A DNA stretch of 59,658 nt from Folioceros fuciformis. Its lineage: Eukaryota. How positions within the stretch are numbered: position 1 is the stretch's first letter; every line of letters begins with the position of its first letter. The position numbers were made by a program, and so were the translations under genes. The stretch spans positions 657,261-716,918 of the forward strand of contig JBNGIO010006314.1 in NCBI GenBank assembly GCA_049999805.1. Reading direction: 5' to 3'. The notes beneath the pieces are model-generated. The model did no database searches. It was given only the letters and a program-made list of their open reading frames with translations, and was not told where the DNA came from. Shown piece by piece: positions 6,533-58,790 of this stretch.

Positions 6533-9127
6533 ATGAGGAAGAATCTGACAGCAAGCGCTTCTAAGGCGGGGAGGGTGACACTGCTGAAAGGCGTCCTGCT
6601 GGGGCTGGCCATCGGTGCCTACTGCTGGTTCATGCAAGATGTCGTTCTCACCACGCTGCTTCAGATGCCCTCCAAGCTACTCAATTTCAATGCCACAGGA
6701 GCTTCGAGGGCAGGCCTCGATGAGATCGGTACCCATTCTGCCTTCGCAGGCTGCGTTTGAAGCTGTCCGAGCGTCTGGATTGAATTCGGATTCGGTTAAT
6801 TGTGTTCGCAGGATTGAGTAACTCGCACTGGTTGTCGGATGACGGGCCCCCTTTGCCCTCGGAGGAGCAAGAGGTTCAGTGGATTCTCGCGCTATGGGAG
6901 GCGTCGGCTTCGCTGAATTTCTCCAGGGCTTCGAATGACACTCTGGTCCAGGAGGCTGAGAAGAACCTGGGCCACTTGGGCCTGAAGCCTCCTCATCTGG
7001 ACGACTGCGCAGCCCGAACTGAGGAGTACAAGAGACTGGATTCTCGGAACCCCGATGGCAGCCGGCCCCAGTGGACCTTGTGGAAAGGCCGGACGGCGTT
7101 TATTCCTCACAAGAACCATGTACAGGTGGACGATACAGAAGAACCACTAGGGAACGCATCAGGTCTGGCATCGGGCCCGCTTCCTCCTTGGGTGAGTCTA
7201 TCCCCCTTCGATTCTTATCGATGTCGGATTCTGGGTTGACATCCAGAAGCCAATGTTCCTCTTGGATCGTCGTTTGCACGGATCCGACTCGGGTATGACG
7301 GGACGTGCCCCTGCATCCTTGATCGCAGGTTGAAGGGGGCGAGGAGGATAACTTTCCTATGACGAGAAGGGTGCAGCGAGATCTGTGGCTGCTCCAGCAC
7401 CCTCGCAACTGCAGTCACGACAGCGTTCGATTTCTGCTCGCCAATTGGCCATCTTCCGACAAGTTCGGGTTGGGCGCACAACTGGTGTATGTGGGAGGGC
7501 TTCTCTCCATTGCCATGCAACAAAAGAGAGTTCTGGTCCTGGAAAACATGGATCGCGCGGGACACGAAGGGTGCCGAGGTCTCACTCTCATGAGCAGCAA
7601 ACCAGTGAATTGCACAGTGCAGGCAGGCTTCATTGATATTACCTGTCTTGTCTTAAAAGCGTTGAGCCCCTGAACGGAGTCCTTGTTGCAGGCTCGGACT
7701 TCAAGAGGTGGTCCTGCTATTTTCTACCTGAGACGACAGCCGAGTGTCGGGAGGCGGTTACCGAGTTGAAGAAGAACGAAACGGGGGCGCTGGCTGAGGG
7801 GAAAATTCTGATGGGCGCAGATGCAAAGCCCAATCCGTGGTTTGTGCCGCCGCCCAGGTACTTTCACAATTCACGCTCTTTCCAGTATCATGGTCAGACT
7901 TGGACAGCTTCAAGGCTTGCTGTTGCTCAAGCTGAGCATCCGCTTTTGGTCCGCCTGGAAGCGGAAAATGTGATTGCAGCTTGGAAGCCTGATCCGCAGC
8001 TCCTGACCGTACACTCTCACTCTCATCTATTCTGGATTTTAGCTTTTGGGGCGAACCTTGGGAGGATCTGCAACCCACATCGGAGGTCGGAGGAGAGCTG
8101 GTGGTTAATTACAAGAAGAAGCATATAAGGTGGTGGCGGTCGCAGGTTTGTGTACCAAGTTCCCTTCAGAGATTGGAAGTCTTTGATATCATTTTGCGAA
8201 CATCCCACATGCGTGAAGCACTAGAAAGGCCTATCAAAGTCCTCAAACCAGAGTGTCGCGGATTTCCTTTCGAAAAATGCAGTCTGTGCGATACTTCATG
8301 AGGTTTCCCGGCGAGTACACATGCACAATGCTCAACCAAGCTCGGCACGACGCATTCGGAGTGAGAGCAGCCACCAAGGTGCTTCGCGCTGCGCGTCAGA
8401 CCAAGCTGTCGGTGAGTTGTGATGACATTCAGCCAAACGCTGGCCGGTCGGTGGCCCTGCTGAGTCGATACCCTAAACCCTAAACCAAATAATGGGACAC
8501 TATTGTGTGTGTGTGAGATGCGCAGATCAGGAACCAAACCACAGCCAGTGAAGCAGACATGGAGAAATGGGTGTGGCCGAGTCAAAAGCCCTGGATTCCA
8601 AGGCCAATGCTGAGCGTCCATGTGCGGCTCGGAGACAAAGCGACGGAGATGAAAATGGTGGACTTCTACACTTACATGGACCTGGCCACCAGGCTGAGAA
8701 CCCGATTTCCTCATTTGCAAAACATCTGGCTATCGTCAGAAATGCAGGTACCATCCCATCCGCAATTGGTTGTAAACCATCCTTGCACACCCCAAATGGC
8801 GAACCGAATAGTGGCACACTGGTTCCCCCCTGCTCGCTTGTTGCGCAGGATGTGATCGACTCGTCCAAGCTGTACCAAGGGTGGAATTTCTACTACACCA
8901 AGATCCCTCGCCAGACAGGCAACACGAGCATGAGCAGCTACGAGCGGAGCCTGGGAGGCGAGCGCTCCGCCCGAAACAGCATTGTCAACTTCCTCCTGGC
9001 CTCCGATGCCGACTACTTCGTTGGCGCCCTGGGATCGACCTGGTGTTTCCTCATCGACGGCATGCGTAGCACATCCGGCAAGCTCATGTCCGGCTACCTC
9101 AGTGTGAACAAGGACCGCTTCTGGTGA
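6533..9127 (+). CDS. Putative alpha-1,6-fucosyltransferase-like (FUT8/GT23-like) protein, copy 1; 8 exons (6533-6728, 6812-7191, 7329-7578, 7692-7857, 8043-8145, 8283-8411, 8526-8747, 8849-9127)
   Basis: Type II TM anchor; SVHVRLGDK GDP-fucose motif; C-terminus ADYFVGALGSTWCFLIDGMRSTSGKLMSGYLSVNKDRFW as in the plant At5g28910-type family. All splice sites are GT-AG and in frame. Confidence 0.85.
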
Positions 9128-9821
9128 CGATGAGCGCCTCCTGCTCCTTCTCCGTCTCCGTCTGCTTCTCTCTCTACCGGTTCGTACGGGGCACCGTACG
9201 TAGCTCTCACGTCTCATACACACTCCCAGCCGTATTTCGTGCCGTGGGAAGAGGCCAAGATGGGACGGCCATAAAATACTTGTTCACTACCTGCAACATT
9301 ACTTCACGCCCAAACCAGACGTTAGGTAAGTTGCCGGCGCCAAATCCGTCAGTTACAGAACTGTAAGCACGGAGCTTTGCGATGGCGGGGGAAGCACGAG
9401 CTGATGGGCCCGCCCGGATCCAGATCATCCGAAAATGTCTCGGCCGCACGTAGAGCGTCGTGGCCAACCGTGGCCACACGACACTACTCAAGACTCGGCT
9501 CCAGCCTACCAACTCCCGGTCCAGAGGCCCGGGCCCCAGCGCACAGCGCCAGGCTCCATGTCGCGGGACTGTAGTTTTTACCTGACGTCGACCCTGCTCA
9601 CATCCTGGTCGGGCCGATGAGCCCGGATAGAAGCTCGTGTAGTCGATGCGTTCTGGAGCCGGATTTCCATCCTGCGCCCGCGCAACCCGAATAAGGAGCG
9701 TCTCCTGCGAATGGGAGGGGAGCGCTGATTCTCTCTCGGACTGTGGTGCTCAGGCTCAGCTGCGGGAAGGAAAGGACAAGGTGGGATCCTGCTCATCAAT
9801 CTGTCTGGCTCAGGGGAGCAG

Positions 9822-12244
9822 ATGTCGGACAGCAGCGGCTTCCATGGCGCCAAAGAACGGCCTAGGAGAGCGCCTCTTCCGGCTCTCTGCAATGTGCTGG
9901 TGCTTGGGATCGTCATGGCAGGGCTCTATTACGCCTCGACTCCGCTCTGGCCGACAGCCAAGTTCAGGGATTTCTACGGTGTTGTGGGAAACGTGACGGA
10001 GTCCAGGCACGGTGAGATTCGGATTGAGATGAGCATGGAGGGGAATGGAGTGGTCTGCCGTACCGTCTCTCCCCTTTGCGGCTTACGAGAATGCGCTTTG
10101 ACTTTTTTTTTTTGCTTGTTGGCTGCAGGGCGAGGTGAGGATGGGCTTTGGTTTTCGGGGGATGCGCCCCCGCGTCCTGAAGAGGAGGGGCGTGTGAGGA
10201 GGATTCTGGCGCTGTGGGAGGCGTCGCCGTTGCTGGGCGGGGAACGGGATCCCAACGACCCCGTTGTGAGGGAGGCGAGGGAAGAGTTCGGGGGCCTCAG
10301 CCTGAAGCTGGGTCTGGGAGCTCCGCATTTGGAGGATTGCGAGGCCCGGGTTGCGGAGTACGTGAGACAGGATTCCCGGGGGGAGGATGGGAGCCGTCCG
10401 GTTTGGTCTTTGTGGAAGGGGCGGACAGGGAGTCTTCCGCACGACAGGCATATGGAGGTGGACGATTCCGAGGAGTTTCTGGGCAACAAATCCGGATTCG
10501 CTTCCGGCCCGTTTCCTCCTTGGGTGAGCCCAGTCATAGCTGCTGCTGAAGGTTGATCCGGGTCTCTGCAAATGGGCTGCTTTTGCTCAGTGCTTGGACT
10601 GCAGGTTGAAGGGGGGGATGAGGATAATCTGCCCATGACAAGGAGGGTGCAGCGGGACTTGTGGCTGCTTCAGCATCCGAGGAACTGCAGCCATGACAGC
10701 GTTCGCTTTCTGGTGGCTCAGTTTCCGCCTTCAGACAGGCTGGGGCTGGGAGCGCAGGTGGTAAACGTGGGAGGCCTGCTGGCGATTGCTATGCACGAGA
10801 AGCGTGTGCTGGTGCTGGAGGACCTGGACCGGGCTGCTCACGAAGGCTGCGCAGGTTTGTCGGTCACTTCCGCTCGGAATGTAGCTCTCTCTCTCTCTCT
10901 CTGTAGCACCTGCTGGGCTTGACTTGCATGCCTCTAGCAGGCAAGGATTCCTTTGGGAGATGGTCTTGCTACTTCTTGCCAGAGACCACCGAGGAGTGTC
11001 GGCGAATTGCTAACAAGTTGCAGAGAAGTCGAGCGGCTCATGCTCAAGGGAAGGTGCTGCGTGGGAGGCAGGCCGAGCGGCTGTACAACCCATGGTTTCC
11101 CCCAATGCCAGAGTACTTGCCCAGCCCAGCTTTGCAAACGTTGCTTCTACCTTCAAGTTCCGAGTCTCATGCATTGTAGGCCTGATGTGGTTTTTCATCC
11201 AGTTTGTGGGGACAGCCTTGGGAGGACTTGCAACCCACAACAGAGATCGATGGCCGCCTTCTCGTGGACTACAAGAACAAGTACGTCCGGTGGTGGCGAT
11301 CGCAGGTGCACAGTCCTAGGCCAGCCGTCCCTTACCGTCTTCACACTCTCGCACACGCTCGCGCTCATGGTTGCACTTGTTGCATGCTCTTGTGCTGCCA
11401 GTCTGTACGCTATTTGATGAGGTTTCCAAACACACACACCTGTATGATGCTCAACAAAGCTCGGCACGAGGCCTTCGGAGTCAGGGCTGCTACCAGGGTG
11501 CTCCGATCTCTCACTGCCGCTCAGGTCTGTACCCACAAGGTTTGGCTTGTAAGTTTTCTTGTCACCACAGCTTGGTGCCTCAACCTAACAAGGACGCACG
11601 TCGTCGAGCTCATTCCTGCCAGGCGAATAATTCCGCAACGGAAGAAGCAGACATGGACAAGTGGATCTGGAGGGATCACAAGCCTTGGGTACCCAGGCCG
11701 CTACTCAGCGTTCATGTCAGACTGGGAGACAAGGCCAGAGAAATGAAGATGGTCAACTTTGACACCTATATGAAACTTGCTAACAGATGGAGACTACGAT
11801 TTCCACACCTCGAAGACATCTGGCTTTCCTCAGAGATGCAGGTACTGTGAAAACAAACCTCTGACCTTGCAAATCGAAAAACCCAGCAGCACTTTCGTGT
11901 GAAGTTGGATGATAATGGGTCACTTGTCACACCGTTCTGAGGTGGTTGCCTCTGACGTCCAGGATGTGATAGAATCCTCGAAGCTGTATCCGGGATGGAA
12001 CTTCCACTACACCAAAATCCCACGACAGACGGGGAACACATCCATGACCAGCTACGAGCGGAGCCTGGGAGCGGACAGATCCATGACCAACTCCATTGTC
12101 AACTTCCTTATGGCCTCCGATGCCGATTACTTTGTAGGAGCGCTAGGCTCCACCTGGTGTTTTCTCATAGATGGAATGCGGAGCACATCAGGAAAGCTGA
12201 TGTCCGGCTACCTCAGCGTGAACATGGACAGGTACTGGGTTTGA
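9822..12244 (+). CDS. FUT8/GT23-like fucosyltransferase, copy 2; 8 exons (9822-10011, 10129-10523, 10605-10854, 10941-11112, 11203-11305, 11402-11524, 11623-11841, 11963-12244)
   Basis: Same motifs and intron positions as copy 1 (PPW|VEG, RSQ|SVRY, EMQ|DVI); SVHVRLGDK present. Confidence 0.85.
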
Positions 12245-13008
12245 GAGTACAGGGTTACCAAGTGAGCCCGTGCAAGGAAGCCAGCAGGATTCTAGGTATA
12301 TTCTCCTCATCCTCTCGTCTTCCTCACCTTCCCTTTTTGGTTGTGAGTTGTCCTGTATAGCACGAAAGACGTGAGTCTCTCTCACAGCTGCTCTACAGCA
12401 GGGTTTTGAGCTGTGGAATACTGTACCAGTATACGTACTTGTACCCTGTACAGGACTGGACTAGGCGAATTTCATGCGGCATGGCAGGAGCGGTGATTGG
12501 CTGGGTGGGCTGGGCGGATCAGGGGAGAGCAGGCAGGGCGGTGCCGTGGGCCTGACCCCGGCACTGATTACATTGCAGAAGCGTGAACGACCTGCAAAGA
12601 CGGCCGAATGATGAGCGCCCGCCGACAGTTGAGCCCGTTACGAGACTCGGTCTCAAAAAGTACAAGACAGAAGCGCGGCTGAGGTCCTGGACGCCAGCCA
12701 GGTCCAGCCCCTGCCTGAGAGCTGCAGCACGTGCGACCATGACCGCACCTCTGGAGCCTCCGCTGAAGAGAGAGCCGGAAGGACGACCCTGTGTGCTCGG
12801 CGTTGTCGGGATGATGAACCTTTATCGCAAGGTCATCCGTGTTGTTTGTGCTGCATTGCCGATCACAGCCTGATCTGACACCTCTTTTTCGCCTGATCTG
12901 GCCCCTCCGATTCCTCACCACTCCCCGGAAGCCTGAAGTCATGTGCGGAGGTTGCGGGTAGCAGTTGCGCACGCAGATGTCGGGGCAGTTGGCTCCGCTG
13001 ATGTCGGC

Positions 13009-15497
13009 ATGGCCTCTCTGCCCGGCCCCAAACCCGGAACCCACAGTCAGTCCGACAATGGCCTCAACTTCCGCCCGCTCTGCAAGGGCCTCACTGTCGG
13101 AGCCGTGATCGGGATCTTGTACTGCTTTGCGATGCGGGATTTGGGCGTCGGGTTCGAGATGCCCCGCAATATCGTGAATTTCTATGGCCCGGGCCCATTG
13201 AATTTCACCTCCATCTCTCCCAGTTAAGCTCGCAGCCGGACCAGCCCAGTGCAGTGAAAGTCTGTCAAGAATTCTTTTTTGTGATGCCAAAATTGTGACA
13301 TCTGACTGCATTGCAGGTGCAACTACGTCTTTCTGGCCTGAGGAGCAACGAGTTAAGTGGCTTCTTGCTCTCTGGGAATCCTCCGCGCTGTTGAACTTCT
13401 CGAGGACACCTGCGGATCCCCTCGTCGTGCAGGCTCAGCACATTCTTCACAATGTGACGCTTCCACCCCCCCATTTGGAGAATTGCGAAGAACGGGCTGT
13501 GGAATACAGGAAATTAGATTCACGAGACAATGATGGCAACCGGCCAGCTTGGTCCCTGTGGAAAGGTCGCATTGGGTGGTTGCCAAGGGACGATCCCATT
13601 GACGTTGATGAATCAGAAGAGATGCTGGGGAACCACACGGCATTGCTGTGGGGGCCGTTTCCTCCTTGGGTAATTTTCCACACAACGCTCCTCTTCAATA
13701 GAGACTCCTTGTTTGCTTGCGTGAGCTGGATGACTAGCGTTGCATCGAATGACCTCCAGCTCTTAAGCTTCTCTTGGTGGTTGCTGTTTTCCCAAGCACA
13801 AGAATAACATTGCACCACAGTACTGCAGATCGGAGGGGCCGAGGAGGATAATCTGCCCTTCACTCGGAGGGTGCAGCGGGATCTCTGGCTTCTTCAGCAC
13901 CCACGTGACTGTGCGGATGAAAGTGTCCGCTTCTTGGTACTGGATTGGGAAACCAGATCGCATTTAGGGTTAGGGGCGCAGATAAATCATATTGCCGGAG
14001 TGTTCGCATTTGCCGTGCGTGAAAGGCGTGTGCTAGTGACACAGAACTTCAATCGGGCAGAACATGAAGGGTGCCAAGGTGAACACTGTCTCGCTCTCCT
14101 TCTTCAAGCTGGCAGCGGATTGCAGCAACAGCTGAATGCTCGGCTTTGGTTGGCGCAGGTTCAGATTTCATGAGGTGGTCTTGTTATTTCGTGTCCGAGA
14201 CAACACAAGAATGCAGGCACAGGGCTGAACAGCTCATAAGCGATCAGAAGGCTTTGGCTGATGGTCGGGTTTTACTCGGTGGCCGTCTGAAAGGACCACA
14301 GTATGACGCATGGCTGGGCCTGCCTCCAGAGTATGTTGCCACCGCTCTTTGACTTCCTTCCTGAGTATTCGTCTCAGCATCTCCACTGACTCTTCATTGT
14401 GGGCCTCTGCTGCTGCTGGGCAACGTGACACACTAAGGCCTTACCACCAGGGTCCCTTGTCTTTCCAGACTGTGGGGTACTCCCTGGAATCTCATGCAAC
14501 CTACATCCGAAGTGAGTGGCAAGCTATTGGTGGACTACAACAGAAAGTACCTGCGATGGTGGCGTTCGCAGGTGCTGTATGCATATTCAACCATGTGATT
14601 GTTTCTTGACATTCGTGCAGCGAAAGCTCACGTACTGTCCACGCCTTTTAGGTTATCCGGTACTTAATGCGATTTCCCAGCCAACGCATGTGCATGCTCC
14701 TCAACAAGGCCCGGCATAAAGCATTTGGAGTAAGGGCTGCTACTAAAGTACTGCGGTCTGCCACTCAGGTACCGGACACTGTCTGGGGAAACCTATGTAT
14801 TGACGCAAGTCTCACATTTCTTGTAGTACTACGGTATACTTGTGTGGACCTTGTTGACGGTGTCTGAGGTCTCTCCAGATCGGAGAGCACCACATGGTAC
14901 AGGAGGCAGACATGGAAAGGTGGATATGGACAAGCCAGAAGCCCTGGATTCCCAGACCCTTGCTGAGCGTCCACGTCCGTCAGGGCGACAAAGCCAAGGA
15001 AATGGCCATGGTAGATTTCCGGGGCTACATGGCTCTTGCGAATAGGCTGCGGAACCGGTTTCCCCAAGTTGAAGACATTTGGCTGTCCTCCGAAATGCAG
15101 GTGACTCCTAAACCTCCTCGTGCAAGGAAACCTTAAACTGGGTAGTGGGATTTCAACTTTATCTCTTGTCCATCAAGCCCATGAAAGCTCATGGCATAGT
15201 CACGTGACTCACCTGCAGGAAGTGATTGAGTCTTCTGCAACATACCCCGGCTGGAACTTCTACTTCACCGAAGTCCCCCGCCAGTCTGGCAACACCACAA
15301 TGCGCGCCTACGAGGCAAGCCTCGGAAGGCAAAGGAGCTCCGAGAATGCGTTCGTGAACTTCCTCATGGCAGCCGACGCCGACTTCTTCGTGGGCGCTCT
15401 GGGCTCCAGTTGGTGCTACCTCATTGACGGAATGCGTAGCACCGGTGGCAAACAAATGGCTGGTTACCTCAGTGTGAACAAGGACAGATACTGGTAG
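13009..15497 (+). CDS. FUT8/GT23-like fucosyltransferase, copy 3; 8 exons
   Basis: MASLPG start, TM segment, GPFPPW|IGGAEEDNLP, SVHVRQGDK, ends GYLSVNKDRYW*. Intron positions are conserved with copies 1 and 2. Confidence 0.85.
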
Positions 15498-28542: not shown

Positions 28543-31500
28543 CTAAGTCAAAGAAAAGCTCAGCGACGATCCCGAAGTGCTTGGATGAAGAAGCCTTCTT
28601 CCATCTACTTTGAGCTCGTCGTCTGTATGTACATAGACCTGGCCCCTAATCATCCTGCGAAGATCTGGCAAGAAGTCGTGAGCAGCAGGACAGCCAACCA
28701 CATTGAGAACTTGAAGCGAGGGTAAGAAGGTGATCTCTGTAGGCAGCTCCGCTAACTTCGAGCAATAGCTCAGGGAAAGCCTGAGCAAAGAGCCCAAATT
28801 TTCTATTCCCTTTGGCAACTTCAGCAACTGCTCGCAGTAGTCCAGATCTAAGTACTGCAGTGACGTCAACTCACAAAGCTCCTCCGGCAAGGTAGCCAAG
28901 ACGCTGCACGAAACTAGTGACAGTCTTTGCAACGACGTGAGCCCCTTAATCTCCTTGGGAAGGGATTTTAAGCTCTTACAAGAGCTGAGGGACAGTCTCT
29001 GCAACGAGGTCAGGCTGCCAATCTCCTTTGGTAGCTTTTCTATCCTGGCACAAGCCGTCAGGGACAGCTCCTCCAACGCTGACAATCCACCAATTTCCGG
29101 GCACACCACTGAGATGTTGCAGTGGCCCAGGTATAACCGGCTCAAATTCTGCAATGAACCGATCTCCGGAGGCAGTCTGACAAAGCTCTTACATCGATTT
29201 AGATTCAACTTCTGCAACGCCTCCAAGCTGCCAATTTCTGCTGGGAGAGTCTTCAGGTTCAGACAACCTGAGAGATCCATTTCCTCCAGGGCTTGTAGCT
29301 GGCTGATAGTCTTTGGCAATGATCTGATGGTCCCACAGTCTTCCATGTGAAACCTCTTCAGGGAAGCAAGGTTACCCAAAGTAGAGGGCAGTTCTTGAAG
29401 TCTGCTCCAGCCAGTCAAGTGTAGCTCTCTCAAAGCACCCAATTGAGTGATAGGCTCTGGTAACCGCTCCATGTTTACACATCCCATCAAAGTGAGGTCT
29501 TTAAGCTGTGGTGGAAACTGCACGTAAGATTTGAACAGGTCAAGACTTTGAAGTCAATGCTGGAAAACGTAGCTTCAACTGTACGACACATGATCGTTGT
29601 TAAGCACACTTACCCGTAAACTAAGATCGATCTTATTACACCGTATCATAACCATGTCTAGCTTTCGACATCTTCCCAATTGAAAAGGGAACTTCATGTC
29701 CTGAACAGGCCTGCTCCAGCCCCAATAAATGAACTCTAAGTCATTCAGTGATTCAACACGATATCCTCGAACAGCTGTGTCCTGAAGGATTAGAACCCGC
29801 AACCCTTCCATCTTGTCCACGAATCGCCCTTGCAACGGATCATGACAATTTAATAGGGAGATGCCCTCAACCTTCTTCAGTTCCTGCAAGGAACATGGAA
29901 TTCTTCATTCAGCAACAGCTCATGCACCTGACAAACGCACAGACTTGACACCTCGTAAACAGACGCCATGTTCGAAAGAGCGAGTCATCTTTACCGTATT
30001 CTTGTCACCCAATATCTCGGGTAACTGGCTGGCATCTTCTGACCGGACACGAGTCTGCTGCGATAAGCTAGAACCGATGTCGGACAGCAGATCATGCATG
30101 CCTACGAGCTCCATCTTCCATGGGTACTCCGAATACCTTGTGAGCTGAGCAATCCCTGTAAGGCCTTCGGTATCTCTGGTCTTGACTGTAACCAATGCCT
30201 GCTCCACTAAGATACTCAAATTTTCCTTCCCCACAATCCGCTCCACAATCCTCCAATCCCAACCCCGGAAAAGTACAGCTATATCAAGGAAGATTTCCTT
30301 CATCTCTGGACTCAGTCTGTCGTAGCTCACTTGCAGCTTTCCGAAGATCTGGTCCTCTGGTAGTAGAAGCTCCTCAGCCTGCTTCATTTTCTTCCCAATG
30401 GCAACCCACTGCTCTTCCGCTAGATTAGCCTCATCGGAGAACAGAGAACCGATGATCTTAAGAGCCAACGGAAGGCCTTCACACTGGGGTACAATGAAAT
30501 CTAGAAGTGCCTCCACACTCTTAGTTGGCATATCAGTTCTCTTTGAAGCATGAAAGAGAAACAAGTCTCTTGACTGCTGGGGGGACAGGCAAGGAAGCTT
30601 GTAGGAGAGGTGAAAGTAAGGATGAATAGTGGTTTTACAGATCTGATCAAGCTTACTGACGACAGCACTGGAGCGAGAGGTAATCAAGACACTACTTCTG
30701 GGAGGCAGAATCTTTCCCAGATTGGGGGGGAGCAGCTCCACGACATGCTTCACTTCGAAAACATTGTCTATGGCAATGCGAGCCTGTTTGGAGCCCATTT
30801 TCAGGTTCACAAACTGATCCAGCAAAGCATTCCTTCCCTTCGAAGTATTTGAGAACTCTTTGCGACCTCCTCCGAGCTGTTGAAGAAGCGATGCTTGCAG
30901 CTTCCTCAAATACACATCATCCGGATTCTTTCCAACTTCGATGAAAGCGAAGAGCCTCTTTTCACTCTTCTCCACTGATGTAATCACCTCGTGCAGCAAC
31001 GTTGTCTTCCCTAGCCCACCTTGGCCGTGAATCCCAACGGTGCATATCCCTTCTTGCTGAAGGAAGTCCACAATGTGGTTGACATGCTGATCAATACCCA
31101 CACTGATGACAGGTCCCAGATCTGGGGTGTTGATTGCGTCAGGTGCATGAGACACACGACTTCTCACTGCAGCTAATGCTGCAAAAGTCAGATTGTCCTG
31201 GAGAGTCTTCAACTCGCAAACTGCCCTCTCCAGGTGCAGCTTAATGCCAGTATCCGCAGATGACACACAGAAAAACCTGCAAACACAGTTTCTGCATACA
31301 ATACATCAAATAGAGCTAGGGCAAACTTGGGGAAGAACACACTAATTTTATGTGACACGAATATGTAAAAGCATTCTACCTACAGACAAGCTACCTTTGA
31401 CAAGAGGTCGGCTTTCTCTCAAGGTATCTTATCACGGCAGCACAATAGAGAAGCGTTCCGGCAGCAATTCTAAACACGTCATTATCAGTGGGAAGGAAGA

Positions 31501-43175: not shown

Positions 43176-43297
43176 AACTGGCTCTAGCGTCAAATCACGG
43201 GCAGATGGTTTGTTCCAACGAGTACTATTTCAGTGCAACTGGCTCTAGCGTCAAATCACGGGCAGATGGTTTGTTCCAACGAGTACTATTTCAGTGC
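43176..43297. repeat. 61-bp perfect tandem duplication
   Basis: aactggctctagcgtcaaatcacgg...tcagtgc occurs at 43176 and 43237. Confidence 0.9.
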
Positions 43298-43992
43298 GCC
43301 TGTTTTGACTGCCAAGCAAGTAAGCTCCATGCAGAGGCATGTTTGGTTTGNNNNNNNNNNTTTGACTGCCAAGCAAGTAAGCTCCATGCAGAGGCATGTT
43401 TGGTTTGACTGCCAAGCAAGTAAGCTCCATGTAGAGGCATGTTTAGCAGAGCAGGTTACTAAGAGCACGAGAAGCCCTAGGAAAATGTGTGTGATAGTGA
43501 ATAATAGCTTAAGGTTTAAATAAATGCTTAAGTAAGTAGTTACTAAGTTAGTAATTTAAATTTGTGTATAAAAGGGGACCTAGCCAAGGGTTAAGGCAAG
43601 TTTAGTACAGTTGAGTTGAGATGGGTATCTCCTCAAAGCCTTGAGAGCACTGGATGCTTGGGCTATGCCTTGAGAGCTTGTGTTGCTTGGGCTGTGAAAG
43701 CACATAAAAGGTGTTATGAAGGAGCTGTGGGAGGAGGTCAAAAGAAGGGAGAGCTAAACTCCTAGCTTAGGCAAAGATGGGGAGTTCTCTCTAGCCCTCC
43801 AGCTCTGTATGTTCTTGTTGACTCGTGATTTGAATAAAGAGCAGCAGTAAGGGTGCTGGCTGCGAGTCCTCCTAGAAGAGGAGGGCGGGCTACTTGGAGG
43901 CCTAGTGCTGTGTTCGGTGTTTAAAAGTGACCCTTGCTTTGACTTCTAACTGTGTGGTTTTGCCCCACCCCATTGAAGGGGGTGTTACTTGT

Positions 43993-44004
43993 TGGTATCA
44001 GAGC
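43993..44004 (+). promoter_or_regulatory. Primer binding site complementary to initiator tRNA-Met 3' end
   Basis: TGGTATCAGAGC, 3 nt after the LTR end. Confidence 0.92.
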
Positions 44005-44042
44005 ATAGGTTGAAGCATCCTTGACTAGTACGCTAGTTGACG

Positions 44043-45158
44043 ATGACAGATCCTACTGAGCCAGGCAGAGTAGAGAGGGTGCGCCGCAGGAAGGATAAGG
44101 CCCCGCTTATCGAAGCCGCTGTGGAAGAGCCACAGGCGGATCCTCAAGTCGTGAGAATGACGGAGGAAGGAACTTCAAAGCAAAGGACCGGTACCACCAT
44201 AGAGGACCAGCTCCAAAAACTCATGAGGAGACTTGATGCCCTTGATCAAGAGATCAAAGGCAAACGTAGGCTTGTTGATGAAGAGCCAGAAAAAGTGGAG
44301 CCCGAGCCTAAGATTAGTGCTCCTAAGAAGGCCAAGAAGTTGAGATTGAGTGTTCCTGCGTCTAAGAGTTATAAGGGCGAGCGTGACGTAGAGAAAATCA
44401 GTTCTTGGTTTTTCTCTTTGGAAGCGTACTTGGAATCATGCGGAGTGCCGCAAGACGAGTACTTGAAGCACGTCACGAACTTCTTGGACGAGAATGCTCT
44501 TACTTGGTGGAGGACTTACGTAGAAAACGTAAGGCAAGGCAATCGCAGAGCAACAATCTTCACATGGGCAGACTTCAAGGAAGCGCTGCAACTTCGTTTC
44601 CAACCCACTAATGCCGCGAGTTTGGCGCGAAGGATGCTTGACAATGTCAAGCATACTGGATCTTTGCGGGAGTATGTGAGTGAATTTAGCTCTATTGTCT
44701 TGCAATGTCCTGATATGCATGAGCAAGACAAACTCCACAAGTTTACTACTGGCCTTAAGAGATGGGCTCAAAACAGGATTGCATTGACTAATCCTCAGAC
44801 GTTGCAAGAGGCTATGGCAGCAGCAGATGCCATACTGGACATGTTTGTCCAGGAGGCTCCAATCTCCAGGGGGAGATATCCTAGATCTCAGGGTAGATCT
44901 AGAGGTAGAGGACGAGCCACCACCACTGGGAACAGTGCAACTGCTGAGACTACTGCCAAAAGCCGGGGTAGAGGTGATAACAAGAGTCGTGGAAGACGAC
45001 GTGTAGCACCTACCTCTGGTGTATGTTATAGTTGTGGAGAGCAGGGACATTTTGCTAGAAATTGTCCACATGCAGGAGCTCCCAACTTGAATCTAGTTGC
45101 CGCAAATCCACCTGTTCCTAGAGCCAAGATCCAAGAGCTCCCTGAAGAGTCTAGGTGA
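44043..45158 (+). CDS. gag: Retrotransposon Gag with CCHC zinc knuckle
   Basis: TWADFKEALQLRF, KHTGSLREYVSEF, DKLHKFTTGLK, CYSCGEQGHFARNC. Confidence 0.9.
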   Translation: MTDPTEPGRVERVRRRKDKAPLIEAAVEEPQADPQVVRMTEEGTSKQRTGTTIEDQLQKLMRRLDALDQEIKGKRRLVDEEPEKVEPEPKISAPKKAKKLRLSVPASKSYKGERDVEKISSWFFSLEAYLESCGVPQDEYLKHVTNFLDENALTWWRTYVENVRQGNRRATIFTWADFKEALQLRFQPTNAASLARRMLDNVKHTGSLREYVSEFSSIVLQCPDMHEQDKLHKFTTGLKRWAQNRIALTNPQTLQEAMAAADAILDMFVQEAPISRGRYPRSQGRSRGRGRATTTGNSATAETTAKSRGRGDNKSRGRRRVAPTSGVCYSCGEQGHFARNCPHAGAPNLNLVAANPPVPRAKIQELPEESR

Positions 45159-45164
45159 CGCTAG

Positions 45165-48100
45165 GGGCCACATGTTGTGAGGACATGTGGTGAGTCATCG
45201 AGTGTCAAGGATGACACTATTTCCAGGGAGGGTGGAGACTTGATGTATATATGTGGCAAGATCAATGGCTTGGATGTTGAGCTATTGTTAGATTCTGCAG
45301 CCACCCATAATTTTGTGACTCCACATAAGGCAAGAGAGCTTGGCCTTGATTGGACTGAAACTTCCACGCCATATAGAATCAAGCAAGCTAAAGGAACTCT
45401 GCAATTTCTGGGTGAATTGCATGGAGTAAAGCTGCAAGTTGATGCGTGGCAAGGAAATGTGAGTTTTACAATCGTGGAGATGGATGACCATGATATCATC
45501 CTAGGTCTGGAGTGGTTGAGATCTAATGAAGTGCAAATGGATGTTAAGTTACGCACTAATGAGATATCCAGAAAGCACAAAGTGAGTTGTGCTAGTAGTA
45601 GCCAGAGGCTTGAGAATGTATCAGTACAGCTGATTACAAAAAGAGAGCTCAAGAAAGACCTTAGGAAAAAGAAGGAGTTCTACTTGCTTGTACTCCAAGG
45701 ACTAGAGGATGGTCTAAAAGAAGATTCCATAGAGGAGAAGGACATCCCAAAAGAAGTACAAGCTGTACTAGATGAGTTTAAGGACTTGATGCCAGATGAG
45801 TTGCCACCATTGCCGTCTCGCAGAATTGTGGATCATGAAATTGAGTTGAGGCCAGGGAGTACACCTCCTTCGAGAGCACCATATAGATTGTCACAAGACG
45901 AGTTGCAAGAACTCAAGCAACAACTATCCAACCTGTTGGCAAAGGGATAGGTTAGAGTTTCTAAGTCTCCCTTTGGTGCGCCTATGTTATTCACACGCAA
46001 AAAGAATGGAGGACTTAGATTGTGTCCGGATTACAGAGCTTTGAACCAGATCACAATCAAGAATGCATATCCTTTACCAAGAATGGATAACATGTTTGAT
46101 AGGTTGAAGGGTGCCAAGTATTTCACCAAGCTAGACCTGATGGCAGGGTACTATCAGATCAGGATTGCTGAGGGGCATGAGTATAAAACAGCATGTAGAA
46201 CAAGGTATGGATCTTTTGAGTTCCTTGTCATGCCATTTGGACTTACTAACGCACCTGCTACATTTCAGACTCTTATGAATACTATATTCATAGATCTGGT
46301 GGACAAGTGTGTTGTAATCTATTTGGATGACATTTTGATCTATAGTCATACCTTGGAGGAACATGTTGAACACTTGAGGAAAGTGTTATAGAGACTAAGA
46401 GAGAATTTTTTCTTCTTGGCAATCAAGAAGTGTGACTTTGTCAAGACAGAAATTCCATTCTTAGGTTTCATTGTCTTTGCCAAGGGCATTAGGATGGATC
46501 CTGATAAAGTTAAGGCCATTCAAGATTGGCAGCCTCCTCGAAATATTCATAAGGTGTGAAGTTTTATGGGTTTGGCTTCTGTGTATAGGAAGTTTGTACA
46601 TATGTTTGATAAGATAGCAGCTCCCATAACTGACCTCTTGAAGACAGCAAAAGCTTGGAAATGGGATGCTGAGTGTCAAGCAGCCTTTGAATGGTTGAAG
46701 AAGAAGTTGAGCACGACTCTGGTGTTGGGAATGTATGACCCCCAGAGAGATGTGGAAGTGTATTGTGATGCCTCAGATATAGCTATAGGTGGAGTTTTGA
46801 TGCACGACCAAAAGTCGTTAGCTTTTGAGTCAAGGAAGTTGCATCCTTATGAGAGGAAGTATCCCACCTATGAGAAGGAAATGACTACTGTCATCCATTG
46901 TTTGAAGGCTTGGAGACACTATCTCTTGGGTAGGTCTTTTGTGCTGTATAATGATAATATCAGCACGACGTACTTCTCAAACTAGTTGAAGTTGAATGTG
47001 AGGCAAGCTAGATGGCAAGATTTCCTAGCTATGTATGACGTGACTCTAAGATATAAACCTGGAAAAGAGAATAAGGTCGCAGATGCACTGAGTCGCAAGC
47101 AGAGTCAAGACATGAAAGCAATGACAACTGTGATTGAACCTTTGGATGCTCACAAAGAGATAAAAGACCCTTATCTGCAAGATCCTGAAGTGCAGGACTG
47201 GATGAATGGGGTGGCAGAGAAAGGAAGCAAGTTCAAACTCAGAGATGGTTTGTTGATATACAAACAGAAGAGAGTTGTGATCCCTAACTCTGTAGGCTTG
47301 AAGAAGAAATTGCTTGCTGAGTGTCATGATGTGCCAAGTGCTGGTCTCCGTGGAGGTGATTCAACTTAGGAGAAGTTGAGGAAATTGTTCTACTGGCAAG
47401 GAATGTATCAAGATACATTGGACTATGTCAAAGCATGTGCTGTTTATCAATAGGATAAGGTTGAGCAGGCTAAGCCGAGAGGTTTATTACAACCCCTACC
47501 TATCCCAAGAGGCCTATGGAAAAGTATTTCTATGGACTTCATCATGCCCTTGCCTCCCAGTAATGGATTTACAGCTATCATGACAGTGGTGGATAGATTC
47601 ACCGGACAAGCACACTTCATCCCCACCAAGAAGCGAGTGACCGCTTCTGAGGCAGCAAACTTGTTCAAAAAGTATGTGTACAAGTATCATGGCTTGCCCG
47701 TGCAGATTGTGAGCGATAGAGATCCAAGATTCACAGGAGAGTTATGGCAGCACTTGATGAGGAGTTTGAATGTGCAGCTATGCATGAGTACTGCATACCA
47801 TCCAGATACTGATGGATTAACTGAGCGAGTCAACCGAATCCAAGAAGAATATTTGAGGCACTATGTGTAGATTGATCAGAGAGATTGGGCTGATCACCTT
47901 GATGATGCGGGGTTTTGTTATAATAACACAGTACATAGCTCCCTGGGATGTAGTCCCTTTGAGATGAGTGGAAATTGAGCTTTGGATGTGGTATCCATGC
48001 TAAATGCTGAAGTTTTTGACACTACCACTGGAATCCACGCCAATTTGTTGAGCAGTTGAAGGCTAGACATGAGGTTGCCCAAAAAATATTAGCCAAGGCT

Positions 48101-48580
48101 CAAGCACGTCAAAAGAGATATGCTGATAAGCACAGGAGAGAAACTGTCTTCAATGTTGGAGATAAGGTTTGGGTGAAACTGAAGCATTTCACACTACCCC
48201 AAGGTTTGTCTTTAAAGTTGAGACCAAAGTTTGGAGGTCCATATGTTGTCTTGAAGCGCATTGGAGAAGTGGCTTACAAGTTAGACTTGCCTGATTGGAT
48301 TTTTACACACAATGTGTTTCATGTATCTATGTTGAAACCATTTGTGCTAGGCAAAGAGAAAGAAGACATAGACAGGAAGAAGTACAGTATCCTGGTGCAG
48401 CATGATCAAGGACTGTAGGAGATTGAGGAATTCCTTGTAGAAGGTAGCGTGGCTACGAGATGTGGAACTCTACCGCAGTATATGGTAAAGTTGCGTGGGA
48501 TCTCAACACCAGTTTGGGTAACATTAGAGGATATTCAGAGAGGCTCCTGGATGATTGCTCGTTACACTGGTTATCACTGA
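45165..48580 (+). pseudogene. pol: Pol polyprotein (protease, RT, RNase H, integrase, degenerate chromodomain) with multiple stops and a frameshift near 47970-48040
   Basis: [70 protein letters not shown]...QYMVKLRG. Confidence 0.93.
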
Positions 48581-49078
48581 GGACAATGATTCTTTCCTAG
48601 TGGGGGAGGAAGTAACAACACTGGTTTGAGTGCCAAGCAAGTAAGCTCCATGAAGAGGCATGTTTAGCAGAGCAGGTTACTAAGAGCATGAGAAGCATGC
48701 AGCCCTAGGAAAATGTGTGTGGTAGTGAATAATAGCTTAAGGCTTAAATAAATGCTTAAGTAAGTAGTTGCTAAGTTAGTAACTTGAGCTTGTGTATAAA
48801 TGGGGACCTAGCCAAGGGCTAAGGCAAGTTCAGTACAGTTGAGTTGAGATGTGTATCTGCTCAAAGCCTTGAGAGCACTGGGTGCTTGGGCTATGCCTTG
48901 AGAGCATGTGTTGCTTGGGCTATGAGAGCACATAAAGGGTGTTGTGAAGGAGCTATGGGAGGAGGTCAAGAGAAGGGAGAGCTAAACTCCCATCTTAGGC
49001 AAAGATGGAGAGTTCTCTCTAGCCCTCCAGCTCCGTATGTTCTTGTTGACTCGTGATTTGAATAAAGAGCAGCAGCAA

Positions 49079-49222
49079 GGGTGCTGACTGCGAATCCTCC
49101 TAGAAGAGGAGGGTGGGTGCTAGCTGCGAATCCTCCTACAAGAGGAGGGCGGGTGCTGGCTGCAAATCCTCCTAGAAGAGGAGGGCGGGTGCTGGCTGCG
49201 AATCCTCCTAGAAGAGGAGGGC
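49079..49222 (+). repeat. 36-bp tandem repeat x4 in the 3' LTR (single copy in the 5' LTR)
   Basis: gggtgctggctgcgaatcctcctagaagaggagggc units. Confidence 0.9.
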
Positions 49223-50120
49223 GGGCTACTTGGAGGCCTAGTCCGATGTTTGAAACTGACCCTGGCTTCTAATTGTGTGGTTTTGCCCCACCCTGTTGAA
49301 GGGGGTGTTACTCTCTCGGTCCTTATACACAATAAATATTAAATACATTATTTAAGAATCTAAATATAAATGTCTGGTATATTCTGCTGTATAGGCTGGT
49401 CCTCCCCGGCTTTCACAATACCATTCCATTTAACAGGAGCTTGGGACCGAGCTCGGGACTTGGTTATGGTAAGGGCCAGACCGTTCTAAGTGCTCCTTGA
49501 TAATGGTAGGGGCCACGAAGTGCAGGTTTAGGGTATGCACCCGACTTGTCGGCCTGATGGAAACACCAGCCTGCTAAAAACCTACAGTCATGGCCTGTCC
49601 TACAGCAACAGTGGGCTTTCGGTATTCAGAGCTTGCTTTTAGAAACCTATCCCAACCTGACAATTACCGCAAACCTGGAGGACCTGTTCATTGGACAATT
49701 ACAAGCAACGCATGTAGCTTGTTCCACAACCCAAATTAGTATACCGCATCATGGAATGCTTCACTGCTCTACTGGAGAAGACCTGTGACGCCAGTACATA
49801 CAGCTGTCCTGCTACGCAGATCTTCTCCGAGATCTTATCTGGGCATGAGACCTGCAGCATCTGCAAGTTCAGTCATCGAATCTCACGGCAGCCTGTCCAG
49901 CCTCGTTGATTGGCACTTCCTGGTGAAGTTCAAGTCCCTTAGCCTCCACTGAATACCGTCGCGTTGATCAACAAAACTGAAACCGCGACCTTCAGCCATG
50001 GCTGGCGCTGGTTGTGCAAATGCACCAGGTGGACACCTTGGAGTGGCCTAAGTCTCGCGCGTTCCTTTGCATCCTCCCCTGCTTCCTCATTTGAAGACGC
50101 TCACCAACGTCCTTAGGATA

Positions 50121-51836
50121 CTACTTTGGAGAATACACAAACTGAAGTATGTCAATAACAGTGGAGGTGATGGTGCAGATAGTGAGGACAAGGAACAGGA
50201 GGGAGCCACCGATAACCCACGGTCTGGAAGAGTCGCAGTAAGTTTGCTTGAACTCATACCACCTGCTCTGGACTACCTTGGTATAGTGCTTACACATAGC
50301 ACCCACCATGGCTTCCCAAGCATCGCTGTGAAGAGGTTCAGAGAAGCCATCACACATGTGGTTCCACATGTCTGCAGCTTTGTCGTCGTCAAGTAGATTG
50401 ACAAACACGCCCCGCTTGGAAAGCACTTGCACATCTTCCTTGCTGTCCACCAACTGGTCCATTAGCTGAAGGTAGCTCCGAACAAAGTACCTGTCCGGGT
50501 AGCACAGCTGCTCATACAAGCCGAGGTTGCGCAACACGGCAGCCGTGTTGTTGGTGATCTTGAGCTTGGGCAACCAGAGAGTAGGGTGCCGCCAAACCCC
50601 GCTCCTGGCCTCGAAGTGCACGTCCTGCACAGTCACAGCCGTGGCCCTAACCACGATCCCGGCCTCCGCAAGCTTGCTGGCAGGCAGAACCCGATACAGC
50701 TCCAATTCCTGCGCCCCGGTCTGATCATTCTCGCTGGTGGAGCGCCAGAAACAGTACAGGATCCCCCAACAGGACACCATGCGGCGGGTCAGGAGCTTGA
50801 GGAATCCCGCCTCCTTGCTGGGCACTGCGTTGTACAAGGACGTTTGCAGGGACTCAGTCTTGTCCGGGGTCGGCCCCCTCCCGCAGACCACCTTGTAGAC
50901 GCAGTCCAAAATGTGCATGTTCTCCGACAGCCCTATCACTACCTTGCTGTTGAGTATGTTGTCATGCAATCGAGCCCTGTTGCAGATGAAGGGGAAGCAG
51001 CGCACCACGGCCTGGGTGAGGGCAAATTCCAAGGAGTCGGTGTGCGCGGCGGTGAAGTCATCGTACATCCGGTGCAGCGCCTTGTTCACCATGAAGAGGA
51101 CGCCCATGGGGATCTGGTTCTCCAGGACCACTAGGTCGGTAAAGAAGGATCCCAGGCGGCCTTCCAGGCCCCCTTCCCGCACTACGTGCTGGAAGTGCCG
51201 CTGGAACAGAGCCGCAGGGGCTTTCCTGCGGAAAAAATTCGCAGACTCGTCCAGGCTATTGCTCAGGGTGCAGAGCACCACCAGCACGAACACTGCATCC
51301 AGAGCCAACCGGTGCTGGATGTCGGGACTGGCTGTCGCCAGCTGGAGGGACTCGGCCGTGGCAGAGTAAACAGCAAATGCTCCCGCCCACGGAAAATTCT
51401 TGTCCAAAATGATGGAGTTCACAAATTCATGCCAGCCAAGGATCACGTCGTCGGTGGAAGATCTAGAGTAACGCTCGATGTCTTGGTCAAGTTGTCGGCG
51501 ATTGACGTAGGATCCCACAGTAGCCGCAATTGAGCGCTTTATTCTCTCGGAGGTGGAATCCATGGCTTCATCGCTGGCGCTGTGGTGAAGCAGGCCCAGC
51601 CGGAATTCTTGAGGCTTGAAGGCATCGGAATAGGGGTGAGCGATGACGTTCATGTATTCAGGGACTGAAGGAATGGTCGTGTTTCGAACCCACCAACCCC
51701 GCCTTGCCATGTCCACACGTTCTTGATCCTTCCTCATAGCCTGTAGCAGGCGACCAGCCCACAGTCCCTTAAGCGTTCGCGTTCGACTGTCGTCCCCCTC
51801 CTTGTCCTCATCCTCTACCAAGTCCTGTAACATCAT
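50121..51836 (-). CDS. DUF247 (UPF0481) protein with C-terminal TM; intronless
   Basis: DLVVLENQIP, HILD, PASKLAEAGI, LRNLGLYEQ, SYLQLMDQLVDSKEDVQVL and a C-terminal hydrophobic helix. Confidence 0.92.
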   Translation of the reverse strand: MMLQDLVEDEDKEGDDSRTRTLKGLWAGRLLQAMRKDQERVDMARRGWWVRNTTIPSVPEYMNVIAHPYSDAFKPQEFRLGLLHHSASDEAMDSTSERIKRSIAATVGSYVNRRQLDQDIERYSRSSTDDVILGWHEFVNSIILDKNFPWAGAFAVYSATAESLQLATASPDIQHRLALDAVFVLVVLCTLSNSLDESANFFRRKAPAALFQRHFQHVVREGGLEGRLGSFFTDLVVLENQIPMGVLFMVNKALHRMYDDFTAAHTDSLEFALTQAVVRCFPFICNRARLHDNILNSKVVIGLSENMHILDCVYKVVCGRGPTPDKTESLQTSLYNAVPSKEAGFLKLLTRRMVSCWGILYCFWRSTSENDQTGAQELELYRVLPASKLAEAGIVVRATAVTVQDVHFEARSGVWRHPTLWLPKLKITNNTAAVLRNLGLYEQLCYPDRYFVRSYLQLMDQLVDSKEDVQVLSKRGVFVNLLDDDKAADMWNHMCDGFSEPLHSDAWEAMVGAMCKHYTKVVQSRWYEFKQTYCDSSRPWVIGGSLLFLVLTICTITSTVIDILQFVYSPK

Positions 51837-51857
51837 GATCAGCTACGAGCTTGCTGG

Positions 51858-52188: not shown

Positions 52189-52822
52189 AGTAACGCCCCC
52201 TTCCTTACGCAGCGTAAAAGGAAGCAACGGCCTCGAATCTCGTCTAAACACTCCGCAGCGCTCCACTTGCAATTCACTCACTCCCTCTCACACGACTCAG
52301 CACTAGGCTCCAAGTAGCCCGCCGTCCACTGACGACTCGCATACCACCTCCTCTAGGTGTTGCTCTTTATTCCAGTTACTTACAAAAGAGTGGAGCGTAG
52401 GTTACAAAAGAGTGGGGCGTAGGTTACAAAAGAGTTTGGCGATCTATGCCCCACTGGCTACTGCCCTCGACTCTATCTGACAAGCTTGCTCTTCAAGCTC
52501 TCCACAGCTATGCCTCCAGGCTAGACTTCTCACTGTCTGCCTCTTTGTGTATCAGTGTATCACAGTATCCTTAAGACCCTAACACTGGCCTATTTATACT
52601 CCACAGCTAAGCCACTGCTAAAACTGGGAATGATACACACCACTCATTCTAGAATACTAGTGGTCATTACAACTCCATCCTTCTTAGGAGGTTTTGCCTG
52701 GAACACACATTTTGTTTCCAAAGGCAGCAAGAAGCATACTTGCTTCTTCATCAAGACAGCTCTAGATTTAGCTTTCACCTTTCTACTTTTAACTTTCACC
52801 TTATTTCACTTATGCTATTACT
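52189..52822 (-). mobile_element. Solo LTR related to the gypsy LTRs, flanked by AACAA duplication
   Basis: Minus strand shares GGGGG(C/T)GTTACT end, GGCGGGCTACTTGGAG(G)CCTAGTGCTG, GAATAAAGAGCA and a GTATAAAT TATA box with the full element. AACAA at 52184-52188 and 52823-52827. Confidence 0.85.
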
Positions 52823-56829: not shown

Positions 56830-58790
56830 TCAATCCTTGTCCGGATCAAATTGACGGAATATCCTACCAAATTCTTGCACCGTATTTGACTCTTCTTCCT
56901 TGCTAATTTTACACGCCTTCCAGTCACCTCTCTCCGGGACGTCTAGCAAATTTGCCAAAACTTCCCTGCCAAACTGCATTGGCATTTTTACACCAGAGAC
57001 CAATGGCTGGGCAAGGACAGTGCCATCAGGAAGCTCCACAGTAAAATAGTTGACGCCATCACCAAGACAATATTTCAAAGCTTGCTTCCTCTCATCGGCA
57101 TCTCCGGTTGGAGGAAACACCCGAAACTCCAATCCCACATCCGCTCCTGCTGACTCGAAAGCCCCTTGCACTTTGCCTGCCTTGGCAAGGGGAATAGGAA
57201 GAACCTGTAAGTGTGCATGTGTGCCCGCGCGAAGCTGCAAATACCTTTCAAAGAACACAACAGCCTGCCCTTGTCCGTTGAAGCACTGTCTAAGCGCCTC
57301 CTTATACTTGTCGATATCATCTTGGGCATCTGACGAGAGCGACGTCAATGAAGGCACGTGCTCTATAGGGATGATCAATACATGACCGGGTACCAAAGGT
57401 CCCTTGGCCAAAGCACAGTAGCAATGATCACCTACACTAATAACCAAATGTTTATCTACATCGGGATTTGAGAGACAGAACCAGCAAGGTTCCGCAGGCG
57501 CTTTCAGAACCTTGCCACCGCTACCTGGCTCTAAACTGTGTCTGTACCGACAGTCAGCACCCTTTTCGCAACTCCCTTTCGTAATGAAATCGAAACAGGA
57601 ACCTCTTTGAATAGGTACACCATCGATATCGTGCTTGAAATGACACCTCGGTTCCCTCGAGCATGAACCCTTGGAAACAAATTCAAAGCAGACTCTTGCT
57701 CCGCCAGTTCCATCACGTGTCTTCTGTCGTTTGTTGTCAGCATACCTCCAATACTGCCCCTCCAGACCATCTTCCCTTCCCGGCGCACTCTCCGCCTTGT
57801 TCTTTGCAGAAACCTTACCTGCATTTAGAGCTGCAGAGTTTCCCGCCACTTCATACGGAGACGGGGTAGTATTTGCGACTTTCACCCCTAATTCTGCAGG
57901 GGTCATAGCAGACGCTGGTGTAGGAGATAGGGCATGTAGAAATTTCTGCTTCTTGTCATTGCCGACAGCCCCAAGTCCGATGAACCTCGTCACATGAATG
58001 GAGCCATCGCTAGTGTACGGCTCCCGGGCATAAAAAACTCCACAAGAGCCTACTATGTGATACCGAGGTTTCAGCTCTGCTGCCAATTCTGCTACCACGG
58101 ATGTACCTGTACCCCAACACTGTCGTATTAGAAGGCCAGTTACTCACTGAATCCACTCGAGAAAGCTCAATCCCATCAGCTTATTCCCAGGCAACCAAAG
58201 ATTGTCTCACCTGTAGGTTGACTCAGCTCCGCAGGGACAGCTGAGAGATCGGCACCCGCAAGAATCCCACTAGGCCATTCGTTGGTGAGAAACACATCGA
58301 CGACAGTAGGATCATCTGCGCACGCGCGCAAAGCATCCACATCATCCTCGTGATGAGCACCTGCCACGGCCGCAGCTTTTGCATCATGATACAGGCTGGC
58401 ATCATACTTGCCACCCAGGAACGCTATCTTCAATCCTTTAAAATTCAGGATGCCGCTCCCCCTCAGCCAGAAGAGGTTCTCACAAACCCGAATCCCGTCA
58501 GAGGTGAGCCCAGCATTCGCAGCTTCTGCTCTGGCTGCTGACAGCAAAATGGCCGCACCTTCACCATAATCTCCCAAGAAATACGTAGGAATCGGAACAA
58601 CCTTCCTCCCTTCTACATACTCCTGGAACTCCTCAATTCCTTGAACAGCAGTAGGAAGAAACTGTCCGACGCAAAAAAGAGCATCAAAGGGACCATTACT
58701 CTTGTTCACAGACGCCACTCTCTTGGACAGAGCATTGAGCCTGCCAAACACATCGCCGCTGAACAACACTCTGGGCGCATCCTTGTTCAT
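56830..58790 (-). CDS. CWF19L1: CWF19-like 1 (Drn1/CwfJ family, with two CCCH zinc fingers); exons 58211-58790 and 56830-58106
   Basis: Metallophosphoesterase-like N-terminus (GPFDALFCVGQF, LTNEWP, KPRYH, TRFIGL), two C3H fingers, CWFCLSNP, HAHLQV, QFGREVLA. Confidence 0.93.

Follow-up and report, generated by a model that had tools for sequence, protein, structure and literature searches.

Probable AGT...ACT ends in a Ty3/gypsy retrotransposon family of Folioceros fuciformis

Which bases bound a long terminal repeat (LTR) retrotransposon of Folioceros fuciformis, and do these ends depart from the usual TG...CA? The element lies on the forward strand of a 59,658-nt stretch of DNA (assembly GCA_049999805.1, contig JBNGIO010006314.1, positions 657,261 to 716,918), which was analyzed as a whole and is called the window here. 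For integrases of the retroviral type, CA-3' is regarded as an almost universal end. The original prediction described the element as a plant chromovirus with LTRs running from AGT to ACT, and suggested that it may represent a lineage missed by annotation based on TG...CA. From the terminal sequences in the window, Logan contigs of the same species, and a comparison with related elements, we conclude, with a probability of about 0.8, that the integrated LTRs of this family read 5'-AGTAACA...TGTTACT-3', not TG...CA, and that the window holds an old, non-autonomous Ty3/gypsy (chromovirus-type) copy.

Layout of the element and its terminal bases

The structural features of the element are as follows.

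43301-49312, forward strand: LTR retrotransposon with two direct LTRs, a primer binding site (PBS), and a polypurine tract (PPT)
43301-43989, forward strand: 5' LTR, truncated on its 5' side with the first 11 nt missing, ending in ...GGTGTTACT
43567-43573, forward strand: TATA box (TATAAAA) in the 5' LTR
43833-43838, forward strand: AATAAA signal in the 5' LTR
43993-44004, forward strand: PBS, 12-mer TGGTATCAGAGC, 3 nt (TGT) past the LTR end
48602-48610, forward strand: PPT, purine run GGGGGAGGA, adjoined by AGTAACA
48611-49312, forward strand: complete 3' LTR of 702 nt, starting with AGTAACA and ending with TGTTACT
48795-48801, forward strand: TATA box (TATAAAT) in the 3' LTR
49061-49066, forward strand: AATAAA signal in the 3' LTR
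49066-49214, forward strand: 36-bp tandem repeat in the 3' LTR, about four units (one unit in the 5' LTR)

The element is built like members of the Ty3/gypsy group (Metaviridae): its LTRs are direct repeats, a PBS follows the 5' LTR, and a PPT precedes the 3' LTR. The LTRs are 92.3% identical over 496 nt (43401-43889 versus 48622-49117) and 84.2% identical over the final 139 nt.

Three LTR ends could be read, and they confirmed the positions and bases on which the original prediction was built. By direct reading and alignment, the 5' LTR closes with GGTGTTACT (43981-43989), followed by TGT and the PBS TGGTATCAGAGC. This 12-mer, which we take to be the binding site for initiator tRNA-Met, also opens internal regions in a transposable element library of lotus. 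At the other LTR, AGTAACA (48611-48617) stands directly 3' of the PPT GGGGGAGGA, and TGTTACT (49306-49312) closes the repeat. Both LTRs of the window copy finish with ...GGGGGTGTTACT, and past the last LTR base the two contexts diverge immediately in the LTR-LTR alignment (TGTTGG... versus CTCTCGG...). The ends at 43989, 48611, and 49312 are concordant. Within the 3' LTR, the first and last 7 nt are perfectly reverse-complementary; of the first 11 nt, 9 pair with the opposite end. The chance of a 7-nt inverted match is 4^-7 per placement, or approximately 0.002 over the ~28 placements near the PPT and the PBS.

The 36-bp unit at 49066-49214 holds an internal CCTCCT...AGGAGG palindrome. Most Logan contigs skip 105-145 nt in this region, so the single-unit form of the repeat is the commoner one. 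No second copy of the element was found in the window; the only match was an 84-nt stretch (52295-52372) with 77% identity to the 36-bp repeat region.

Ends of other copies and competing readings

Logan contigs from four public runs of Folioceros fuciformis (X1-X4) were placed on 48400-49500 at a likeness of at least 80%, the place of a contig being its first or last fitted base (checked on record 25 of X4). Among the matches listed, X1 yielded seven contigs with unaligned sequence before 48611 and six with unaligned sequence behind 49312; for X2, the corresponding numbers were six and seven. The loose sequence had a median length of 255 nt, and agreement with the flank consensus was 0.48-0.53. 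As the flanks are this unlike, the junction contigs represent different insertion sites. Contigs that break exactly at 48611 and 49312 with dissimilar flanks indicate that the AGT...ACT ends are a family trait and not the decay of a single copy. Ends other than TG/CA, the mark of a plant non-TGCA LTR retrotransposon, were thus found common to both LTRs and to other copies. X4, a separate sample of the same species, also contains pieces of the LTR (12 contigs). X3 showed C-to-T changes at 35 places over 48400-49500, as in a bisulfite-type library, and was left out of the boundary argument. Logan contigs also show backward joints at the LTR start, one of them with an inserted second stretch resembling an LTR start; the LTR start of the AGT...ACT family seems prone to tandem duplication.

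Several points weigh against AGT...ACT as the family's ends. X1 and X2 come from one sample, which is possibly the source of the window assembly. No target site duplication (TSD) could be read for any copy, so the family's ends were placed where homology breaks off, rather than from duplicated target bases; the boundary positions come from the listed junctions only, so that minority boundaries 1-2 nt away are possible. In a metagenome family (L008/L015) found in the scan described below, one LTR ends in ACT and two sister copies end in ACA; single-copy A-to-T changes at the terminal site therefore do occur. The fourth end of the window copy is missing. The 5' LTR has no AGTAACA start, the 11 nt AGTAACAACAC being absent, and LTR-LTR homology starts at TGTTTTGAC (43301), which matches TGGTTTGAG (48622), i.e., at TG(T/G)TTTGA. 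Position 43303, given as the start of the element in the original prediction, is not a terminus.

The 5' edge of the element is truncated, rearranged, or misassembled. A 43-bp sub-repeat occurs in three copies in the 5' LTR and in one copy in the 3' LTR (43301-43443 and 48622-48664). Directly upstream of the 5' LTR, a 61-bp unit is duplicated in tandem with 100% identity (43176-43297), and 54 nt further on there is a 10-N gap (43351-43360) inside the LTR. This duplication may stem from a local assembly error rather than from the genome itself. The 61-bp unit was also considered as a diverged LTR start and rejected, since its local alignment score of 16 equaled the shuffle mean of 16.0. With the start of the 5' LTR missing or disturbed, no TSD, expected to measure 4-6 bp, is readable for the window copy; its 3' flank is CTCTC, with no match on the 5' side.

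Taken within the window alone, the start of homology at TG (43301/48622) favours a TG...CT element of a known type. The LTR would then start with the TG at 48622, AGTAACAACAC would be internal sequence 3' of the PPT, and chance would have produced the 7-nt inverted match. TGCT is, moreover, the commonest non-canonical type in lotus (PMC9804982). The contigs of other copies speak against this reading, however. The break falls at 48611 in seven junction contigs, and at 48622 the matches listed include no loose end shared by several contigs. Logan depth climbs from 566 at 48596 to 1772 at 48620, the latter position being covered by 32 contigs compared with about five at 48583-48586; the repeat thus takes in bases before that TG. 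The inverted match has the low chance expectation given above, and the start of the 5' LTR, where homology would have to be read, is visibly disturbed by the N gap and the sub-repeat expansion. We therefore regard TG...CT ends as unlikely.

Somewhat less probable still are true ends of the form G...C (GTAACA...TGTTAC), in which the outer A and T would be target bases and the integrase would prefer a T...A target in AT-rich DNA. The flank consensus of the other copies is AT-rich, and an A before and a T after the element would be common by chance. However, the A at 48611 after the PPT and the T at 43989 before the PBS spacer lie inside the element, where there is no target DNA, and the outer A and T are included in all seven and all six listed junction contigs.

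Least probable is that a canonical TG...CA element decayed after insertion or was misassembled: the copy is old, as seen from its LTR divergence and its many stop codons, its 5' edge carries an N gap and a perfect duplication, and the metagenome family offers a precedent for the base change, but the three ends are concordant in the window copy and independent junction contigs share both terminal bases. With LTRs differing by ~8%, decay of a single copy would have to combine three particular A/T transversions, one at each of three terminal positions, for which we estimate a probability of ~1e-6. The assertion of the original prediction that decay is unlikely was thus borne out by the six to seven contigs with dissimilar flanks at each end.

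Coding content and relatives

The coding remnants of the element are listed below.

44037-45158, forward strand: gag open reading frame (ORF) with Retrotrans_gag, Ty3_capsid, and zf-CCHC domains (Pfam)
45177-45950, forward strand: aspartic protease (PR) piece (Pfam)
45984-46391, forward strand: reverse transcriptase (RT) piece, RVT_1 (Pfam), with an in-frame stop at its end
46566-46985, forward strand: RNase H (RH) piece, RT_RNaseH_2 (Pfam), with 53-57% identity to its top relatives in the database
47532-47870, forward strand: integrase (INT) core piece, rve (Pfam)
48056-48418, forward strand: integrase C-terminal SH3 domain, SH3_Tf2-1 (Pfam)
48422-48580, forward strand: candidate decayed chromodomain of 52 aa, preceded by an in-frame stop (hhalign, weak)

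The Pfam domains follow the order gag-PR-RT-RH-INT along 44037-48418, which is that of Ty3/gypsy elements, and membership in this group is shown. About 10 in-frame stops between 44037 and ~47976 and a frameshift between 47870 and 48020 were found; the window copy is old and non-autonomous. Between the end of the pol-derived frame (48580) and the PPT (from 48602) there is no room for an env ORF of the kind that characterizes errantiviruses.

The element had also been called a chromovirus. A pointer in this direction is that several of the best RNase H relatives carry PF00385. In the copy itself a chromodomain is only weakly detectable: the last 52 residues (48422-48580) look chromodomain-like by eye, but no Pfam Chromo match and no BLASTP match was obtained for them, and hhalign placed them on the chromodomain columns of a profile of seven chromodomain-bearing relatives with E=0.045 and a probability of 1.2%. 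Chromovirus status of the window copy is likely.

For a comparison with relatives, prokaryote assemblies (with their eukaryotic contamination), metagenomes, and viral contigs were scanned for the last 8 LTR nt followed by 0-6 nt and the PBS. In the prokaryote assemblies, where the last LTR base was left open (A or T), all 15 loci ended in ACA and none in ACT, although 8 of the 15 belong to one family and the loci amount to ~8 independent families; GGGTGTTACA was present in 13. The metagenomes were scanned for the ACT form only, so that the 15 loci found there, 12 of them with GGGTGTTACT, give no ratio of ACT to ACA. The window's own family was not among these 15 loci. Viral contigs had no match to either the ACT or the ACA form of the pattern.

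Of the 30 loci, tblastn identified only three as relatives at the protein level. The two closest, L026 (RT 60% identity) and L021 (RT 58.5% identity), both end in ACA. L010 (54% identity) is the sole protein-level relative that ends in ACT; its contig lacks the 3' LTR. No LTR pair was found in L011 (11 kb). The reverse complement of the last 10 nt was sought upstream in the 30 loci and revealed no usable LTR start, with the exception of a candidate in the L021 family (TGTGACACCC, by motif search only).

The canonical relatives L021 and L026 resemble the window element in domain order, in the PBS 12-mer, in a spacer of 2-5 nt between LTR and PBS, and in the subterminal GGGTGTTAC, which is common to the window family and its ACA-ending relatives. 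Where these relatives start with T and end with A, the window family has A and T, respectively. Judged from these sequences, it thus appears to depart from its relatives at the outermost base of each end only, by complementary changes. Of the proposed lineage with altered ends, the family-level part is supported by the Logan contigs; an extension to a wider lineage is not, since the closest relatives end in ACA.

Two further observations were made in the scans. One eukaryotic Ty3/gypsy element with GGGTGTTACA and a tRNA-Met-type PBS recurs in eight assemblies deposited under bacterial names, actinobacterial ones among them (L016, L019, L021, L024, L025, L027, L028, and L029), which looks like shared eukaryotic contamination. 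Four metagenome loci (L006, L009, L012, and L013) belong to one retroelement family with long arrays of ~200-bp tandem repeats in the LTR, upstream of GGGTGTTACT and the PBS.

Known non-canonical ends, possible mechanism, and surroundings

Approximately 99% of rice LTR retrotransposons have TG..CA ends (10.1101/137141). In the LTR_retriever preprint, 42 of 50 plant genomes contain non-TGCA elements, of which seven types are described and 89% are Copia; only the first T is invariable (10.1101/137141). Nine types were reported for lotus, all starting with T, TACA being the sole Gypsy type (PMC9804982), and TGTT and AACA were added from Copia elements and terminal-repeat retrotransposons in miniature (TRIM) of Rosaceae (PMC5659011). 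Together, the plant types comprise TGCT, TACT, TGGA, TACA, TATA, TGTA, TCCA, TGGT, TGTT, TAGA, and AACA (10.1101/137141, PMC9804982, PMC5659011). Among the types named in the excerpts of 10.1101/137141, PMC9804982 (text, Table 2, Table S3), and PMC5659011, AG..CT was absent. A limited full-text literature search, with Supplementary Table S2 of the preprint, Repbase, and REXdb outside its scope, retrieved no report of a plant element with AG...CT ends.

The window family shares with the plant non-TGCA elements that its ends other than TG...CA are a family-level trait, and a CT-3' right end is already known there (TGCT, TACT). These elements are, however, mostly Copia with short LTRs, whereas the window element is Ty3/gypsy and has altered bases at both ends with an intact inverted repeat. 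The AACA families of Rosaceae likewise have an LTR starting with A, but they are Copia or TRIM elements that retain the 3' CA and are not palindromic (PMC5659011). Ends of AGT...ACT represent a rare form of an already documented exception to TG...CA.

A closer match in terminal bases is provided by insects. Errantivirus ends are AGT/AnT (PMC5408687), and the motif of the Zam group is AGTTAYRK...TAAYT, compared with TGTYANR...CNTNACA for chromoviral integrases (PMC3601003, Table 3). The gypsy, ZAM, and Idefix groups of Drosophila errantiviruses have the same terminal trinucleotides AGT...ACT as the window family, with several complementary bases behind them (PMC5408687, PMC3601003). The statements of the original prediction that TG...CA is near-universal in plants and that AGT-type ends are familiar from errantiviruses agree with these sources (10.1101/137141, PMC5408687). 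In contrast to errantiviruses, the window element has no env ORF, resides in a plant host, and has its nearest RT/RH relatives among plant elements. The similarity reflects convergence and gives no ground for placing the element in that group.

As for a mechanism, the family would have kept the subterminal integrase-recognition sequence of its relatives (...GGGTGTTAC-) and altered the outermost bases only. A change from T to A at the U3 start and from A to T at the U5 end would offer the integrase ...TGTTACT-3' on both 3' strands. The first base of U3 is set by cleavage of the PPT primer near the 3' end of the RNA, and the last base of U5 adjoins the PBS near its 5' end. Because these bases lie at opposite ends of the RNA, the changes would be separate mutations retained together, and because both 3' strands end in ...TGTTACT-3', the integrase would have to join a CT-3' end. 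The integrase of the family may thus accept or even prefer CT-3' ends. Before joining, 3' processing would remove the 3-nt TGT between U5 and the PBS, together with any additional bases to the left of U3. It is a speculative and rather doubtful extension of this that a clade of Ty3/gypsy elements in non-seed plants has independently evolved an errantivirus-like AGT...ACT att site together with a CT-3'-adapted integrase, and is widespread in bryophyte-grade genomes and absent from reference classifications built on TG...CA.

An amplified family with complementary changes at both ends would be a natural test of drift in integrase end recognition, repeating the case of the insect errantiviruses. 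Its ends also matter for annotation. Pipelines that rely on TG/CA or on a fixed list of ends would trim the LTRs by ~11 and 23 nt (TG at 48622; last CA at ~49288-49289). The trimmed LTRs would fail the TSD check, and the family would be dropped or misdated, which matters most in poorly sampled non-seed plants. In the REXdb survey of Neumann et al., elements were predicted with TG/CA ends only (PMC6317226), so that an AGT...ACT family could not have entered that reference set. The expectation that TG...CA-based annotation misses the family is likely to hold.

The G+C content is ~50%. ORFs neighbouring the element encode NB-ARC, LRR, DUF247, and GT92 domains. The following host genes, all with long open exons, were recorded.

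28543-31305, reverse strand: NB-ARC and LRR protein (NLR-type resistance gene)
50121-51842, reverse strand: DUF247 protein, directly downstream of the element
56830-58143, reverse strand: CwfJ/CCCH zinc-finger protein

The CwfJ-like protein shares 52-58% identity with moss and liverwort proteins versus 44-48% with those of seed plants. By its proteins the host is a bryophyte-grade land plant, and the database contains no proteome close to it; the G+C content would suit a hornwort. Three tandem copies of a unit of ~3.1-3.3 kb, with 60-80% identity, occupy positions 6977-15494.

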